Below are positions 32,742 to 37,506 of a DNA stretch of 64,000 nucleotides, one piece after another (position 1 is the first letter of the stretch; each line of letters starts with the position of its first letter). Below the pieces are notes generated by a model that searched no databases, was not told where the DNA came from, and saw nothing but the letters and a program-made list of their open reading frames with translations. The translations under genes were made by a program, and so were the position numbers. The stretch is from Nitrospirota bacterium (GTDB taxonomy: Bacteria; Nitrospirota; UBA9217), in the NCBI GenBank assembly GCA_029858565.1, contig JAOUEV010000001.1:32001-96000 (forward strand), written 5' to 3'.

Positions 32742-33198
32742 GGGTCCGATCGTTGCGAAGACATTTTGTCAATGATTGTCGGCCACTACTATACCATAAA
32801 TGCTGGAGACGACAAAGGGAAAAGAACAGGTGCGATCGTCATCAGCGATACAGACTGTTGACTAAAGTGACTATAAGGACAGATACGCTCCCCTATTGTT
32901 GTTCCGTTAAATGGTGTGATGTCATGCTCATTCCGTGAAAGGACGATGTGCTTCCTGCCGGAGCGCACAGCGGAGTTTGGCGGGAAAAACAGCATTTTCT
33001 CGTCTACGATCGCCAGGATCATGCGATTCGGCCGCGATGAAGTGAAAAAGCGCATAATAATTTCATGATGAAGAGAACAAGTATAATTGTGAATAATCCG
33101 CATAAAACAAAAAAATAAAGTACACATTTTAATTGGTGTTGATATAACTGTTGATAAATTGTCTAACATGAGGAAAGATAATTTTTTATTTTTTTCTG

Positions 33199-33245
33199 TT
33201 GACAAATTATGAACTCTTGTTGTATATTTGTCCACGAGGTGAACA
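33199..33245 (+). promoter_or_regulatory. Promoter with operator-like palindrome upstream of the wHTH-MNT gene
   Basis: TTGACA-18 bp-TATATT; TGTCCAC-gag-GTGAACA inverted repeat (33229-33245) over the predicted +1 and RBS. Confidence 0.6.
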
Positions 33246-33249
33246 GAAG

Positions 33250-33816
33250 TTGCTATCGAAACTCTTCTCTTCAACGAGAGCCGAACTTCTGAGCCTGTTC
33301 TTTAACAATCCGGACGAGAAGTTCTACCTCAGGGAGATCGCCCGGCATATCGGCAAGGACGCGGCCGGTATCAAGCGGGAGCTCGATACCCTGGTGAAGA
33401 TCGGGCTCCTGGCCTGGGAAAAGCGGGGAGTGCAGAAGTACTACTTCGCAGACAAAGGCTCCCCGATCTTCTCGGAAATGAAAGGCCTGATCTTCAAGAC
33501 CACGGGCGTGCAGGGCGCGATCAAGGCGGCGCTCACGAGGCTCAAAGGGGTGCAGGCGGCATTCATCTACGGCTCCTTTGCCAAGGGTTCGGAAAAAGAG
33601 GACAGCAATATCAACCTGATGGTGATCGGCCAGGTGAACATCACGGAACTGAACGACGTGGTGGTAGGGCTCGAAGAGAAGCTGAAACGCGAGATCGACT
33701 ACCTGGCCTTTGACGAGCAGGAATACCGGAAACGGAAGGAAACGAAGGACCCCTTCATCCGGGAGATCGTGAAAGGAAAAAAGCTCATCCTGCTGGGCAA
33801 GGACGATGACGTATGA
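33250..33816 (+). CDS. wHTH plus minimal nucleotidyltransferase (MNT) domain protein with degenerate catalytic motif
   Basis: LFSSTRAELL...YLREIAR...IKREL wHTH; IYGSFAKGSEKEDSNINL in place of GSx10DxD; TTG start after GAGGT. Confidence 0.85.
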   Translation: MLSKLFSSTRAELLSLFFNNPDEKFYLREIARHIGKDAAGIKRELDTLVKIGLLAWEKRGVQKYYFADKGSPIFSEMKGLIFKTTGVQGAIKAALTRLKGVQAAFIYGSFAKGSEKEDSNINLMVIGQVNITELNDVVVGLEEKLKREIDYLAFDEQEYRKRKETKDPFIREIVKGKKLILLGKDDDV

Positions 33817-34288
33817 AGCGCTCCAAGAGATGGGGCTGGAGGAGCGGGCACCTGAGATCGCCGAAGTAATGGGTCTGATGATACGGGCCGAGCGCGATCT
33901 GGCAACGGCCCGGTTGCTCCAGGACAAGGACGAGGAATGGTCCTACGCCGCGGCGTATCAAGCCATGGCCCGGTCCGGGAGAGCGCTCATCATGTCCGAG
34001 GGATACCGGCCCAAGGGGCCCCGGAGCAGGGATACCCATAAGACAGTAGTGACCGCTTCGGGAGTGATCCTGGGCGATAAGTTCAAGAGCCTGATCAATA
34101 AGTTCGACCGGATGCGCAGGAAGTACCAGAACTTCATGGTCGAGAGCGTAAGCATGGTATCCCGTTATGAAGCAGGGCAGGCCATCAAGGACGCGGAAGA
34201 GCTCTTCGGGATCGTAAGTTCACGGCTGCGGGAAAAGTACTCGCAGATGTCATTGCTGAACGATGTACCTCAGCTCGTATCCAGATAA
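33806..34288 (+). CDS. HEPN-domain protein with degenerate RNase motif
   Basis: AERDL..A, AYQAM...ALI..EGYRP, HKTVV, FDRMRRK(YQNFMVE); overlaps the MNT gene. Confidence 0.8.
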   Translation: MTYEALQEMGLEERAPEIAEVMGLMIRAERDLATARLLQDKDEEWSYAAAYQAMARSGRALIMSEGYRPKGPRSRDTHKTVVTASGVILGDKFKSLINKFDRMRRKYQNFMVESVSMVSRYEAGQAIKDAEELFGIVSSRLREKYSQMSLLNDVPQLVSR

Positions 34289-34333
34289 AGGCCGCTTGAA
34301 TCGAATGCGGTGACCGAAAGGGGGTGGACAACA

Positions 34334-34393
34334 ATGCCGGCGAAGAAGAAAGCTGCCAAGAAGAAGGCGAAGAAAAAGGCGAAGAAAAAGTAG
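34334..34393 (+). CDS. 19-aa Lys/Ala-rich micropeptide MPAKKKAAKKKAKKKAKKK
   Basis: Strong RBS AAGGGGGTG, ATG...TAG, followed by a hairpin; paralog 195 bp downstream. Confidence 0.75.
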   Translation: MPAKKKAAKKKAKKKAKKK

Positions 34394-34423
34394 TCTTTGA
34401 ATACATTGCCCCGAGATGGGGAA

Positions 34424-34447
34424 ACGCCGGGGGATCTCCCCCGGCGT
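34424..34447 (+). terminator. GC-rich hairpin after the first micropeptide
   Basis: ACGCCGGGGG-atct-CCCCCGGCGT followed by a weak AT-rich tail. Confidence 0.6.
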
Positions 34448-34528
34448 CATTTAATCAATAATTCGTCCGCAGTCGAGGACGTTTTCCAGGGCTTCGCCCC
34501 TAACCTAAGCAAGGAAGGAGATCGAAAC

Positions 34529-34588
34529 ATGCCCGCAAAGAAAAAAGCCCCGGCCAAGAAGGCCAAGAAGACCACGAAGAAGAAATAG
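34529..34588 (+). CDS. 19-aa Lys/Ala-rich micropeptide MPAKKKAPAKKAKKTTKKK
   Basis: RBS AAGGAG, ATG...TAG; same MPAKKKA start as the first copy but with synonymous codon differences. Confidence 0.75.
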   Translation: MPAKKKAPAKKAKKTTKKK

Positions 34589-34638
34589 CTGTGCCGAGCC
34601 TGTCAGGACGGCCATGCTCAAAAGCCATGAATATGGTT

Positions 34639-34672
34639 ACCACGAAGGACGTCTTCGTGGTTTTGTTTTTTT
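34639..34672 (+). terminator. Intrinsic terminator after the second micropeptide
   Basis: ACCACGAAG-gacgt-CTTCGTGGT followed by TTTGTTTTTTT. Confidence 0.85.
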
Positions 34673-34846
34673 ATGGGAAGAAGAAAGAGCGGTTCAGAAC
34701 ACCCGTCGAGCCGAACACACGTTGTGGTACGGAGACGGACGTGAACGTGCTCTTCTGTCCGGTGAGGTCTTCGCGCGGATGATCTGACCTCCCCACATTT
34801 GAAATATCCGGCCGCTTGCTCTATAATGCGGTCGGATGGCTGAATT

Positions 34847-35185
34847 ATGGCAAGACGAAACTATGTACGGACCCCCCGCAGTCTGAAACGCACGGCCGGC
34901 AGGAAGAAACTGGTGATTGCCGCGGCCGTGGTAGCCGGGATTGCTTTGCTCTGGTCCCTGGTAATGGGAGAGATGGGGCTGGTGAAGTACTTGCGGATGA
35001 AGAACCAGGAGAATGCCCTGCGCGTCGAGATCGATCACCTGACCCAGGACAACCGCCGCCTGCTGCAGGAGGTCAAGGCGCTCAAGTACGATGCCGCGTA
35101 TCTGGAGCGTCTTGCCCGGGACAAGATCGGCCTCGCCCGTCCCGGCGAGATCGTCTATTATTATGGCGATGTGGAGGTGCGGTAA
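34847..35185 (+). CDS. ftsB: Septum formation initiator FtsB/DivIC
   Basis: TM helix, coiled coil, LERLARDKIGLARPGEIVY. Confidence 0.88.
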   Translation: MARRNYVRTPRSLKRTAGRKKLVIAAAVVAGIALLWSLVMGEMGLVKYLRMKNQENALRVEIDHLTQDNRRLLQEVKALKYDAAYLERLARDKIGLARPGEIVYYYGDVEVR

Positions 35186-35301
35186 CTCTCCTTTTGGCGG
35201 TCTGCAGTATACTGTCGATCATTCCTCGGGTTCCAATATTCGTTTGACACCTCTTCCCCCCGCTTGTATCATTAGAGACATACTGTTCCCGTGACCAAAC
35301 C

Positions 35302-37506
35302 ATGTCTGATCATCCTCTTTCCATAGCCTTTGTCTGGCACATGCACCAGCCCTACTACAAGGACGACCTGACGGGCTCGTACATCCTGCCCTGGGTGCGC
35401 ATGCACGGCATCAAGGACTACTACGACATGCCGGCCATGCTCCGGGACTTTCCCGCGGTGCACCAGACCTTCAACCTCGTTCCCTCACTGATCAAACAGA
35501 TCCAGGACTACGTGGAGAACAACGCCACGGACAAGTTCCTGGACCTGACGATCAAGCCCGCGGAGAGCCTGACGCAGGAAGAGAAGCTATTCCTGCTCAA
35601 GAACTCATTCATGGCGAACTGGGACACCATGATCAGGCCCTACCAGGCCTACTGGATGCTGCTCGATCGCCGGGGGAGGAGCGTGTCACCCCGGGACTTG
35701 GAGAGCGCCACGCGCTATTTCACGGTCCAGGACTACCGGGACCTGCAGGTGTGGTTCAACCTCACCTGGTTCGATCCTCTTTTCAAACAGGGAGATCCGC
35801 TCGTAAAGGGGCTGATCGAGAAGGGAAGCGGTTTCACCGAGGAGGAAAAATTGCTCCTGGTGAAGAAACAGCGCGAAGTGATGGGCCTGATCATCCCCGA
35901 GTACCGCCACCTGGCGGCGTTGGGAACGATCGAGCTCACGACCACTCCTTTTTACCATCCCATCATGCCCTTGTTGTTCGATACGGATCTGGCCAAGGTC
36001 GCTGAACCGAACATCAGTCTGCCTCAGAACCGGTTCTGCCATCCCGAGGATGTGCGCGTGCAGGTGGAGCGCGCCCTGGCCTATCATGAGAGATTCTTCG
36101 GATCCCGGCCCACGGGCATGTGGCCTTCCGAGGGCTCTGTTGCCGAGGAGATCATCCCGCTCCTGGCCGATGCGGGCATCAAATGGATCGGCACTGACGA
36201 GGGTGTTCTTGCCCGTTCCCTGGGCGTAACGATCGAACGGGACTTCGGCGGGGTCATGAAGCATCCGGACCTGCTCTGCAAACCCTACCGCGCGGGCAAA
36301 GGCGACAAGAACCTATCAGTGATATTCCGCGACCACACCCTGTCTGACCTCGTGGGTTTCGTCTATTCCAAGTGGGATTACAAGAACGCGGTGAACGACC
36401 TCATCGAGCGGCTGCACCGCATCCGGAAAGGCGTGGGGAACACGCCGCACCTGGTCTCTATCATCCTGGACGGCGAGAACGCCTGGGAGTACTACCAGAA
36501 CGACGGACGGGATTTCTTTCTCGCGCTTTACGAGCGGCTGAGCAGGGAGCAGGGGCTCAAATGCGTTACCGTGGGCGAGTATCTGAAGGACCATCCGCCC
36601 GCGGACGGGATCGACCGGTTGCACGCGGGCTCCTGGATCTCGGCGAACTACCGCGTCTGGATCGGTCACGAGGAGGACAACCGGGCCTGGGACCTCCTGG
36701 GCCAGACCCGCGACGCGCTGGTGCAGTTCGCCAACAGCAACGGCGACGCCGGGGCGGTCGAGCAGGCCTGGGAGGAGATCTACATCGCAGAGGGCAGTGA
36801 TTGGTGCTGGTGGTACGGGGACGACCATTTTTCCGAGAACGACCAGGAGTTCGACCTTCTGTTCCGGACGCACCTCATGAACGTCTACCGGATCATCGGC
36901 CTCGACGTGCCTGACGAACTGCACATCCCGATCCTGCGCGAGGACCGGGAAGCGCGGCCCACGGTGGAGCTGACCGCCCTGATCTCTCCGTCCATCGACG
37001 GCCAGGTCACCAACTATTTCGAATGGCTCTCCGCGGGCTACTACGACGTTGCGCGCGGCGGCGGCGCCATGCACCGGGGCGACAGCATCATCAGCCATAT
37101 CTATTACGGTTTCGACCTTCGCAACCTTTTCCTCCGGCTGGACCCGAGCCAGAGCCTGCAGGACGACAAGGTGGCGGACCTGACGTTCTATGTAAACTTC
37201 CTGTCGCCAAAGGGACTGGACGCGGAGATCCGGCTCGCGCCGCAACAGCGCAGGGTGACCGCAGCCCTGTTCCGGGGAAGGAACGGCGAGCGCAGCCGGG
37301 TCGCGGCACTCGACATGATCTCCGCCAACGAGATAATCGAACTGGCGATCCCCTTTGAATCGCTCGGTGTGAAGCCGGGCAGCGGCGTCCATTTCTTTGT
37401 CACCGTGGAGCGAAAGGGTTCCGAAGTGGAAAAATGGCCCTTCCGCGGCTTCATTCAGGTGACCGTACCGAACGACGATTTTGAAGCCACCATGTGGCAG
37501 GTCTAG
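35302..37506 (+). CDS. Glycoside hydrolase family 57 (amylopullulanase-like)
   Basis: WHMHQP, HPIMP, WPSE, DGEN and AEGSDWCWW conserved regions. Confidence 0.93.
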   Translation: MSDHPLSIAFVWHMHQPYYKDDLTGSYILPWVRMHGIKDYYDMPAMLRDFPAVHQTFNLVPSLIKQIQDYVENNATDKFLDLTIKPAESLTQEEKLFLLKNSFMANWDTMIRPYQAYWMLLDRRGRSVSPRDLESATRYFTVQDYRDLQVWFNLTWFDPLFKQGDPLVKGLIEKGSGFTEEEKLLLVKKQREVMGLIIPEYRHLAALGTIELTTTPFYHPIMPLLFDTDLAKVAEPNISLPQNRFCHPEDVRVQVERALAYHERFFGSRPTGMWPSEGSVAEEIIPLLADAGIKWIGTDEGVLARSLGVTIERDFGGVMKHPDLLCKPYRAGKGDKNLSVIFRDHTLSDLVGFVYSKWDYKNAVNDLIERLHRIRKGVGNTPHLVSIILDGENAWEYYQNDGRDFFLALYERLSREQGLKCVTVGEYLKDHPPADGIDRLHAGSWISANYRVWIGHEEDNRAWDLLGQTRDALVQFANSNGDAGAVEQAWEEIYIAEGSDWCWWYGDDHFSENDQEFDLLFRTHLMNVYRIIGLDVPDELHIPILREDREARPTVELTALISPSIDGQVTNYFEWLSAGYYDVARGGGAMHRGDSIISHIYYGFDLRNLFLRLDPSQSLQDDKVADLTFYVNFLSPKGLDAEIRLAPQQRRVTAALFRGRNGERSRVAALDMISANEIIELAIPFESLGVKPGSGVHFFVTVERKGSEVEKWPFRGFIQVTVPNDDFEATMWQV

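Follow-up and report, generated by a model that had tools for sequence, protein, structure and literature searches.

Two conserved lysine-rich micropeptide genes beside a nucleotidyltransferase-HEPN gene pair in a Nitrospirota family

Introduction

The tails of eukaryotic histone H1 and of the bacterial proteins AlgP, Hc2, and HupB have the same lysine/alanine/proline composition and are built of PAKK and AKKK units. This report concerns two very short genes, here named pepA and pepB, whose entire predicted products resemble a fragment of such a tail. They lie in a stretch of 64,000 nucleotides, hereafter the window, from the genome of a Nitrospirota bacterium (GenBank assembly GCA_029858565.1, contig JAOUEV010000001.1, positions 32,001 to 96,000 of the forward strand), and positions refer to the window unless a contig is named. 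Bacterial H1-like proteins (AlgP of Pseudomonas, Hc1 and Hc2 of Chlamydia, the mycobacterial HupB tail, and DdbA of Streptomyces) are the subject of published work (PMC9239181, PMC2848022, PMC3643593). The products of pepA and pepB share with them the AKKK and PAKK units, the large excess of lysine over arginine, and the lack of acidic and hydrophobic residues, and by analogy the expected mode of action would be the same, namely, disordered, multivalent binding of DNA or polyphosphate. However, the H1-like proteins have about 100 to several hundred residues, with a folded or repeated domain or a long array, whereas the peptides are complete at 17 to 22 residues. Unlike the H1-like proteins, they occur as two conserved tandem types, each with its own ribosome-binding site (RBS), and no sequence model links the two groups.

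Very small basic proteins are also known from ribosomes. The protein bS22 has about 30 residues, 61% of them lysine plus arginine, was unannotated in Borrelia, and is expected by its authors in more bacteria (PMC10618245). The proteins bS22, eL41, mS38, bL37, and bTHX resemble the pepA and pepB products in being tiny (about 24 to 35 residues, versus 19), more than 50% basic, and often missed by gene callers. Proteins of the bS22 type, however, mix arginine with lysine, carry a few conserved hydrophobic residues, and place a defined helix in a pocket of the ribosomal RNA (rRNA), whereas the peptides lack arginine, have Met, Ala, and Pro as their only residues of a hydrophobic kind, and are matched by none of the ribosomal-protein models.

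The third kind of comparable system is the attenuator leader, as in his, trp, thr, and abrB. In Bacillus subtilis, an AAG-containing leader peptide upstream of abrB responds to modification of the lysine transfer RNA (tRNA-Lys) (PMC13733827). Such leaders share with pepA and pepB a very short open reading frame (ORF) enriched in codons for a single amino acid (lysine in 12 and 10 of 19 positions, respectively), followed by a hairpin. Unlike leaders, pepA and pepB stand at the 3' end of an operon with a strong terminator after them, their peptide sequences are conserved as two types, and no lysine gene follows.

Two 19-codon genes with strong ribosome-binding sites

The two genes and their Shine-Dalgarno (SD) sites are as follows:

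34316..34327 (+): extended SD of pepA, GAAAGGGGGTGG, 6 nucleotides ahead of the ATG
34334..34393 (+): pepA (type A), ATG at 34334, TAG at 34391-34393, product MPAKKKAAKKKAKKKAKKK
34511..34521 (+): SD of pepB, AAGGAAGGAGA
34529..34588 (+): pepB (type B), ATG at 34529, TAG at 34586-34588, product MPAKKKAPAKKAKKTTKKK

The pepA product has 19 residues, comprising 12 lysines (63%), 5 alanines, and 1 proline, and the pepB product, also of 19 residues, contains 10 lysines (53%), 4 alanines, 2 prolines, and 2 threonines. The sequence and the ORF list thus bear out the original prediction, made from the sequence of the window, which had placed two 19-residue peptides at these same coordinates and had called their composition H1-tail-like; they consist of Lys, Ala, Pro, and Thr, with no arginine. 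The different synonymous codons that it had quoted for the shared beginning (ccg gcg aag aag aaa gct in pepA, ccc gca aag aaa aaa gcc in pepB) are present. The ORF list is largely as it had stated, with pepB seen there only as the tail of a 63-residue TTG-started ORF (34397-34588) and pepA only inside a 27-residue GTG-started ORF (34310-34393). The pattern ATG-CCN-GCN-AAR-AAR-AAR-GC matches twice in the 64-kb window, both times at the starts of pepA and pepB, while the mean over 100 dinucleotide-preserving shuffles of the window is 0.00.

The upstream starts GTG 34310 and TTG 34397 were rejected, as the extensions that they would add are conserved neither in sequence nor in frame. A 1-nucleotide indel in the spacer between SD and ATG alters the reading of the upstream extension (TERGWTT versus PKGGGQI), and because the extensions therefore read differently between genomes, the ATG behind the SD is taken as the start. 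The 16S rRNA of this genome ends in GGATCACCTCCTTTCT, so that the pepA SD is able to pair with it over 11 consecutive bases, one of them a G-U pair. The 10-mer AAAGGGGGTG of this SD occurs just four times in the 3.9-Mb genome, both strands included. Ahead of pepA, GAAAGGGGGTGGA is unchanged in 22/22 family loci, and the pepB SD reads GAAAGGGGGTGA in most family loci outside this genus.

Conservation and coding signature within the family

A DNA query spanning 34250-34900 found matches in 23 of the 24 same-family genomes among 40 related genomes, and the loci of 23 relatives were examined for ORFs. A type A ORF of the form M[PA]AKKKA(A)KKKA[KT]KKKA[KT]KKK is present in 22 of the 23, mostly with 18 to 22 residues (one first copy has 26), and three loci hold a second type A-like copy. 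A type B ORF, M[PA]xKK(K)APAKKAKKxxKKK, with 17 to 20 residues and the core APAKKAKK-xx-KKK, is found in 21 relatives' loci at about 200 to 230 nucleotides from pepA. The locus that lacks type B alone is cut by the end of its contig, and the one that lacks both peptides belongs to an 87%-complete genome. Over a wider sample, the strict type A pattern occurs in 54/63 other genomes of the family and in 0/337 genomes from other families of the phylum; the type B pattern occurs in 55/63, with one copy each. In nearly all genomes of the family the peptide genes are single copy, and reversed-pattern controls for both types gave 0 matches throughout. Complete family loci always show the same order, that is, the gene of a winged helix-turn-helix (wHTH) nucleotidyltransferase, a HEPN gene, pepA, and pepB. 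In 22 family loci no domain is fused to the peptides, the ORFs being bounded by a conserved ATG and stop.

The way in which these ORFs vary is that of protein-coding sequence. Between pairs of equal length, 329/461 differences in pepA and 679/999 in pepB fall at codon position 3, and synonymous codon differences outnumber replacements by 256 to 85 and by 511 to 253, respectively. The 44 family ORFs contain 483 lysine codons, AAG or AAA, and no codon for asparagine (AAC, AAT) or arginine, while in the long ORFs of the genome arginine outnumbers lysine 1.7-fold (66069 versus 37953). The share of AAG in the peptide ORFs (352/483, 73%) is near that of the genome (69%). Length changes within both types involve whole codons only, and variation in the GCN, CCN, and ACN codons is confined to position 3. 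An antisense gene was considered and rejected: the opposite frames are open, but start, length, and product are all unconserved between genomes.

Together, these observations make it very probable that pepA and pepB are real, selected, protein-coding mini-genes. The original prediction had proposed just this, for unannotated genes, and had suggested a search for MPAKKK-type patterns and synteny in relatives as a check; run here, that check shows start, stop, frame, length, RBS, and synteny kept throughout the family. Its argument for selection, the synonymous divergence between the two genes, is weak if drawn from two paralogues alone; selection itself is upheld by the comparison across genomes. 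Beyond that prediction go the link to the wHTH-nucleotidyltransferase/HEPN pair, the status of A and B as distinct conserved paralogues, and a reach of such ORFs far outside this genome.

Neither Pfam (E values up to 0.01) nor NCBIfam (E values up to 10) contains a family that matches the 27- and 63-residue ORF versions or a 20-residue relative, in searches by profile methods that are weak for short low-complexity queries. A match of a 49-residue relative to the tail of valine-tRNA ligase (E = 1.8) was dismissed as meaningless. Five natural versions of 20 to 63 residues, a set that excludes the 19-residue window peptides, have no exact match in a collection of about 15 billion proteins, and the literature outside subscription journals yielded nothing on free-standing oligolysine peptides in prokaryotes. 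Gene callers pass over such short ORFs, models of them are lacking in profile libraries, and trypsin would leave fragments of these peptides too small to identify. If made, the pepA and pepB products would rank with the smallest conserved products of bacterial genes known so far, and they escape standard tools.

RNA elements of the unit

Three structured elements accompany the two genes:

34291..34311 (+): small conserved hairpin between the HEPN stop and the pepA RBS, GCCGC, 11-nucleotide loop, GCGGT
34409..34447 (+): two-hairpin element 3' of pepA, composed of a CCCC/GGGG hairpin (34409-34421) and a 10-bp GC-rich stem (34424-34447)
34639..34671 (+): intrinsic terminator, ACCACGAAG-loop-CTTCGTGGT followed by TTTGTTTTTT, with 10 pairs and a T-run (hairpin 34639-34661)

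The SD sites and these folds confirm that each peptide gene has an RBS and a downstream hairpin, as had been predicted. The hairpin at 34291-34311 has five predicted pairs in a comparison of 20 sequences, with a nearly invariant stem, a loop that varies in sequence and length, and zero covariation. No conserved promoter was found between the HEPN stop and pepA, a gap of 45 nucleotides.

The two-hairpin element after pepA is kept in 20/20 aligned loci with variable loops. The 67-nucleotide stretch that contains it folds with -30 kcal/mol and a z score of -3.80 (1/200 shuffles folds as well), and compensatory changes from G-C to A-U are seen in 2/8 consensus pairs of the GC stem at 34424-34447. 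This hairpin is followed by CATTT, not by a T-run. In the consensus fold, the G-run of the pepA SD (34320-34323) pairs with a conserved (T/C)CCC just 3' of the ORF (34410-34412; alignment columns 38-41 with 137-140). Such pairing, as modeled, could sequester the pepA RBS; because both sides are invariant, it offers no covariation test.

The terminator at 34639-34671 likely marks the 3' end of the transcription unit. Its hairpin folds with a z score of -2.10 (5/200 shuffles as good), its stem CCACGAAG/CTTCGTGG is invariant in 22/22 family loci around a variable loop, and its tail TTTTGTTTTT is kept in 22/22, in one of them as TTTTTTGTTT. The stem sequence occurs once in the genome. Such invariance is unusual, since drift would be the expectation for an ordinary terminator, and the stem may be bound by a protein or form the 3' end of a stable RNA. 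The 45 to 70 nucleotides ahead of the terminator vary freely between loci, unlike the stem and the T-rich tail. A search of 33000-36000 against Rfam (E values up to 10) returned four matches with E values of 2.2 to 8.3, far under the gathering scores, which were rejected as chance.

Neighboring genes and transcription

The genes around the peptides are as follows:

33199..33816 (+): wHTH and Pol-beta-type nucleotidyltransferase (MntA-like), 205 residues, Pfam Polbeta 3.1e-09 and HVO_A0114 3.8e-06
33806..34288 (+): HEPN-domain protein, 160 residues, Pfam HEPN 4.7e-09
34799-34827 and 34847-35185 (+): promoter-like site (match 11/12) and ftsB/divIC-like gene (Pfam DivIC 1.1e-15), outside the unit

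The nucleotidyltransferase also matches Pfam NTP_transf_2. Its score with the NCBIfam model MntA_antitoxin (7.6e-06, 25.8 bits) is below the cutoff of 60, and equivalence to MntA is for that reason unsupported. The HEPN gene overlaps the nucleotidyltransferase gene by 11 nucleotides and ends 45 nucleotides ahead of the pepA start. Its translation contains RSRDTH, which fits RX4-6H, the motif of HEPN proteins, so that the features of an MNT/HEPN module, namely, adjacent and overlapping nucleotidyltransferase and HEPN genes with this motif, are all found here. The pair (33199-34288) resembles an MNT/HEPN toxin-antitoxin module and yet occupies a fixed chromosomal place across the family at 64 to 90% identity, behaving like core genes rather than like a mobile module. 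The nucleotidyltransferase gene stands 5' of the peptides in all relatives' loci that reach it (77 to 90% identity by tblastn; 21/21 in one count and 20/21 in another, the missing locus, L005, being cut by a contig end), and the HEPN gene stands 5' of pepA in 21/21 (64 to 90% identity). Farther upstream, a divergent DEAD-box RNA helicase gene is present in 10/10 family loci that reach far enough. Downstream, an FtsB match is found in only 16/22 loci, whereas the upstream genes are constant; a GH57 gene follows the ftsB/divIC-like gene.

Metatranscriptome contigs from four runs in four studies cover relatives' loci, in libraries where carried-over DNA is possible and strand, ends, and level are unreadable. 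Some extend from inside the HEPN gene into pepA (34203-34374, 34203-34366, and 34269-34393), others from pepA into the following hairpin (34345-34468 and 34323-34446), and one spans pepA and pepB with a different spacer. They are compatible with cotranscription of HEPN and peptide genes and constitute weak evidence of transcription. Contig depth is unable to rank expression, the little or absent cover over 34464-34511 and 34608-34900 is uninformative, and much of the pile-up over 34344-34391 stems from lysine-rich sequences of other organisms. Small word shares in 23 of the 24 listed runs were set aside as a guide to habitat. We infer that the peptides are probably transcribed with the upstream genes, or by read-through from them, and translated efficiently.

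Similar ORFs in other lineages

A scan of about 186,000 species genomes for M-x-x-KKK-A-(x)-KKK behind a strong SD gave at least 120 stretches, of which 80 were read; their phylum labels are a tally from record titles, in which uncultured bins may be mislabeled:

Nitrospirota: 33 of 80 loci
Methylomirabilota: 11 of 80 loci
Planctomycetota: 9 of 80 loci
Patescibacteria: 6 of 80 loci
Archaea: 4 of 80 loci
Acidobacteriota: 4 of 80 loci
Omnitrophota: 3 of 80 loci
Gammaproteobacteria: 3 of 80 loci
Verrucomicrobiota: 2 of 80 loci
Eremiobacterota: 1 of 80 loci
Deferrimicrobiaceae: 1 of 80 loci
Unclassified: 3 of 80 loci

Oligolysine ORFs of 10 to 40 residues with a strong RBS are present in at least 10 other phylum-level groups. 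The 80 loci hold 82 matching ORFs, 77 with at most 40 residues and 68 with at most 25, which average 61% lysine, 23% alanine, and 1.9% arginine. Their early stop is a genuine observation because the pattern constrained only the first 10 to 11 residues; shortness alone nevertheless proves little, since a random continuation also stops after about 20 codons. The telling feature is that these ORFs are lysine-rich up to the stop, and recurrently so.

Within Nitrospirota, a relaxed pattern is matched in 55/63 genomes of the own family, 5/7 of family f4, and 1/1 of f14 and is rare elsewhere. One other lineage of Nitrospirota has a homologue of the nucleotidyltransferase (42% identity) encoded directly 5' of a single 16-residue oligolysine ORF with the same SD, and there is no HEPN gene. 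Most of the 14 Methylomirabilota-type loci read contain, in this order, an AbiEi_2-like wHTH gene, a basic ORF of 23 to 24 residues (MPKRKKAVKKGGKKKATKKGKRK), a 13-residue ORF MAKKKKAAKKKKK encoded by differing codons between loci, and two G/C-rich hairpins, an anatomy close to that of the pepA/pepB locus. The five loci where Pfam Ribosomal_L28 has a match end with rpmB in convergent orientation. The tandem loci of this type include L046, L048, L051, L063, L067, L075, L079, L108, and L111. Homology of the upstream wHTH genes across phyla was unsupported (BLASTP E values of 4.7 and 22). One Methylomirabilota-type locus holds the 13-residue ORF twice, and the same 13-residue peptide appears, with near-identical flanks, under the titles Acidoferrum, Deferrimicrobiaceae, and Nitrosotalea, which may be binning errors.

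In the order that contains G401, 10/61 genomes match the pattern when no SD is required, and 10/10 of these show an SD of the type AGGAGGTG. Nine of the 10 oligolysine ORFs lie 140 to 200 nucleotides downstream of rsfS, with a riboflavin synthase gene next in 7/9, and the RsfS proteins of these loci have only 50 to 64% identity to the query. These rsfS-linked loci (L162-L170, from genomes G401-G404, G431, G444, G445, G459, and G460) belong to small genomes of 0.9 to 2.5 Mb; the ORFs have 10 to 40 residues and are free in sequence and length, while position and strong SD are kept. Methylomirabilota and the G401 order are lineages that provide independent support. In two closely similar loci labeled Planctomycetota (L097:719-772, +, and L098, -), an oligolysine ORF of 17 to 22 residues precedes lysA on the same strand, lysA being the diaminopimelate decarboxylase gene (TIGR01048, partial match). 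As the ORF is closed by a terminator of its own and a promoter-like site belongs to lysA, a lysine attenuator is possible there, though not evident. Because RNA and ribosome genes (rsfS, rpmB) and DNA genes (UDG, MutS) both occur beside the look-alike ORFs, neighbors do not decide on function. As a separate observation, locus L042 (labeled "bacterium") holds a 31-residue Lys/Arg/Val-rich ORF immediately 5' of a PCC (PPC/DUF296) domain gene on the same strand; in plants, the PCC domain is fused to AT-hook DNA-binding motifs.

Possible functions of the peptides

The function proposed here is that pepA and pepB encode H1-tail-like polycationic binders reduced to free-standing micropeptides, an interpretation of the sequences that we hold tentatively, at a little less than an even chance. 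Two distinct polycations of 18 to 22 residues, with lysine as the sole charged residue, would be produced. As free peptides they would act in trans as minimal, intrinsically disordered counterions of the H1-tail kind. Many weak contacts between lysine and phosphate would attach them to polyanions of the cell, primarily DNA and possibly RNA or polyphosphate as well, so that charge is neutralized and compaction or condensate formation promoted. The original prediction had offered nucleoid condensation, RNA binding, and polyphosphate binding as candidate roles. Strict use of lysine over arginine would keep binding dynamic, and lysine acylation could switch it off. The complete exclusion of arginine in an arginine-rich proteome, the PAKK and AKKK units, and the larger H1-tailed proteins of the same genome favor such polyanion binding, to which, as a mode of action, we again assign somewhat under half of the probability. 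Extra tandem copies in three relatives and the look-alike tandems elsewhere fit a product needed in quantity.

Several points weigh against this proposal. Both the translation of the peptides and their binding are predictions, and the RNA-library contigs carry the limits given above. A generic counterion would not need two distinct, well-conserved paralogues, and the fact that prolines are conserved in position, like the TT of type B, suggests that there may be a specific partner. The ribosome-gene neighbors elsewhere (rsfS in 9/10, rpmB in 5 loci) favor an RNA or ribosome target, and the conserved link to the nucleotidyltransferase, second lineage included, is unexplained by an H1-like mode. 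A simple replacement of polyamines was rejected, as homologues of speD and speE lie side by side in the genome.

Alternatively, the products might be ribosome- or rRNA-bound microproteins like bS22, eL41, bL37, and bTHX, seated in an rRNA pocket or engaged in ribosome assembly or hibernation. For such proteins, bS22 offers a precedent of a tiny, basic, and unannotated ribosomal protein (PMC10618245). The oligolysine ORFs directly 3' of rsfS in 9/10 loci of one small-genome order, the convergent rpmB of Methylomirabilota loci, and the divergent DEAD-box RNA helicase gene in 10/10 family loci that reach far enough point in the same direction, and the very strong SD would resemble that of highly expressed translation genes. 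Gene neighborhood by itself is weak evidence, however, and the rsfS-linked ORFs drift in length (10 to 40 residues) and sequence, unlike a protein fitted to a pocket. Docked ribosomal micropeptides carry arginine, aromatic, or hydrophobic residues, whereas the family ORFs have zero arginine codons among 483 basic codons and no aromatic or hydrophobic residues of that kind; nor is there a match to a ribosomal-protein model (NCBIfam, E values up to 10; Pfam, 0.01). A ribosomal role is unlikely, if worth keeping in mind. Lower still is the probability that translation itself is what matters, with the AAG/AAA runs sensing lysyl-tRNA charging or wobble modification, or with the strong SD and a sticky nascent chain holding ribosomes and so steering the fate of the messenger RNA or read-through at the hairpin after pepA. 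The abrB leader is a precedent (PMC13733827), and the terminator-like hairpin without a T-run 3' of pepA, the consensus fold in which the SD G-run pairs with a conserved CCC 3' of the ORF, and the oligolysine ORF 5' of lysA in two Planctomycetota-labeled loci agree with it. Yet nothing related to lysine lies downstream in the family; a strong conserved terminator closes the unit, and what follows is an inconstant gene (FtsB in 16/22) behind a promoter-like site of its own. Sensing would require neither two peptide types nor fixed length and conserved Pro, Ala, and Thr positions, AAG use is 73% against 69% in the genome, tRNA-Lys(CUU) and tRNA-Lys(UUU) are both encoded, and the lysA-linked ORFs carry a separate terminator, with a promoter-like site for lysA. 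Folding gives two independent hairpins after pepA, and no antiterminator pairing was seen, although alternative folds were not the object of a dedicated search; with no lysine gene downstream either, classical attenuation is disfavored.

Equally improbable, in our judgment, is that the peptides work with the wHTH-nucleotidyltransferase and HEPN proteins, as cofactor, substrate, inhibitor, or nucleic acid tether. In its favor, the order is fixed in every complete family locus, the 45-nucleotide gap between HEPN and pepA has no terminator T-run, RNA-library contigs join the end of HEPN to pepA, the second Nitrospirota lineage has its 42%-identical nucleotidyltransferase directly 5' of the 16-residue ORF, and the Methylomirabilota tandem peptides come after an AbiEi_2-like wHTH gene. 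Synteny inside one family may, however, reflect inheritance only. The second lineage lacks HEPN, the Methylomirabilota upstream protein has no pairwise similarity to the Nitrospirota one, and similar ORFs in other phyla have unrelated neighbors. Nucleotidyltransferases of the MntA kind modify Ser, Thr, or Tyr, and the pepA product, as read from its sequence, offers none of these. Scarcely credible, finally, is a noncoding purine-rich RNA, for example, an Hfq-type (ARN)n tract with a terminator, or a gene on the opposite strand. The A-R-N triplet rule of binding to the distal face of Hfq is fitted by the AAG/AAA repeats, the unit ends in a hairpin and U-tail, and antisense frames are open across the region. 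Against this, ATG, stop, and SD with its spacing are conserved, indels inside the ORFs comprise whole codons while one of 1 nucleotide lies just outside, GCN, CCN, and ACN codons vary at position 3 only, no Rfam family is above threshold, and neither start nor length is conserved among the antisense ORFs, whose products differ between genomes.

In a wider view, pepA and pepB might be the first examples of a widespread, unrecognized class of gene-encoded oligolysine polycations of 10 to 40 residues, made from mini-cistrons with an extended SD in Nitrospirota, Methylomirabilota, Planctomycetota, Omnitrophota, Patescibacteria, Acidobacteriota, Verrucomicrobiota, some Gammaproteobacteria, and DPANN archaea. 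Such a genetically encoded, tunable polycation would be the counterpart of a minimal linker histone or a peptide polyamine, organizing nucleic acids, ribosomes, or polyphosphate, and lysine-only so that its binding is liquid-like and can be cancelled by acylation. This generalization is speculative, and we consider it more doubtful than the proposal for pepA and pepB themselves. The conservation in the family, the Methylomirabilota tandems, and the rsfS-linked copies suggest a common, overlooked intracellular supply of polycations, with a bearing on DNA compaction, on the buffering of RNA or polyphosphate charge, and on ribosome silencing in bacteria that lack classical histones. Peptides of 19 residues can be synthesized and would serve as reagents for testing such ideas.

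Other lysine-rich genes in the genome

The genome holds several larger proteins with H1-like tails. On contig C30 (9992-10609, +), a 205-residue protein combines an H1-like Lys/Ala-rich N terminus with a C-terminal CxxC...CxxC that was read by eye as a DksA/TraR-like zinc finger, and N termini of this type (MAVKKKA...) have matches in several genomes of the family. DdbA of Streptomyces reportedly has the H1-like domain architecture that this protein would match.

A third conserved micropeptide family, of 22 to 34 residues, is represented on contig C116 (2361-2465, -) and by loci L175, L180, and L178. Its members carry the N-terminal motif M-[AS]-C-G-x-x-(G)-C-G ahead of a tail rich in Lys and Ala and have an SD of the type GGAGGAGGTG and their own terminator. 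They were seen in four genomes of the family, mostly of this genus; a DNA search with the gene returned mainly generic lysine-codon matches. On contig C40 (39290-39361, -; L173), a 23-residue basic ORF, MAQSRQGAKKETKKPKKSKTDKK, with the SD AGGAGGTGA, lies about 60 nucleotides 5' of another ORF, the C-terminal part of which resembles HU on visual inspection.

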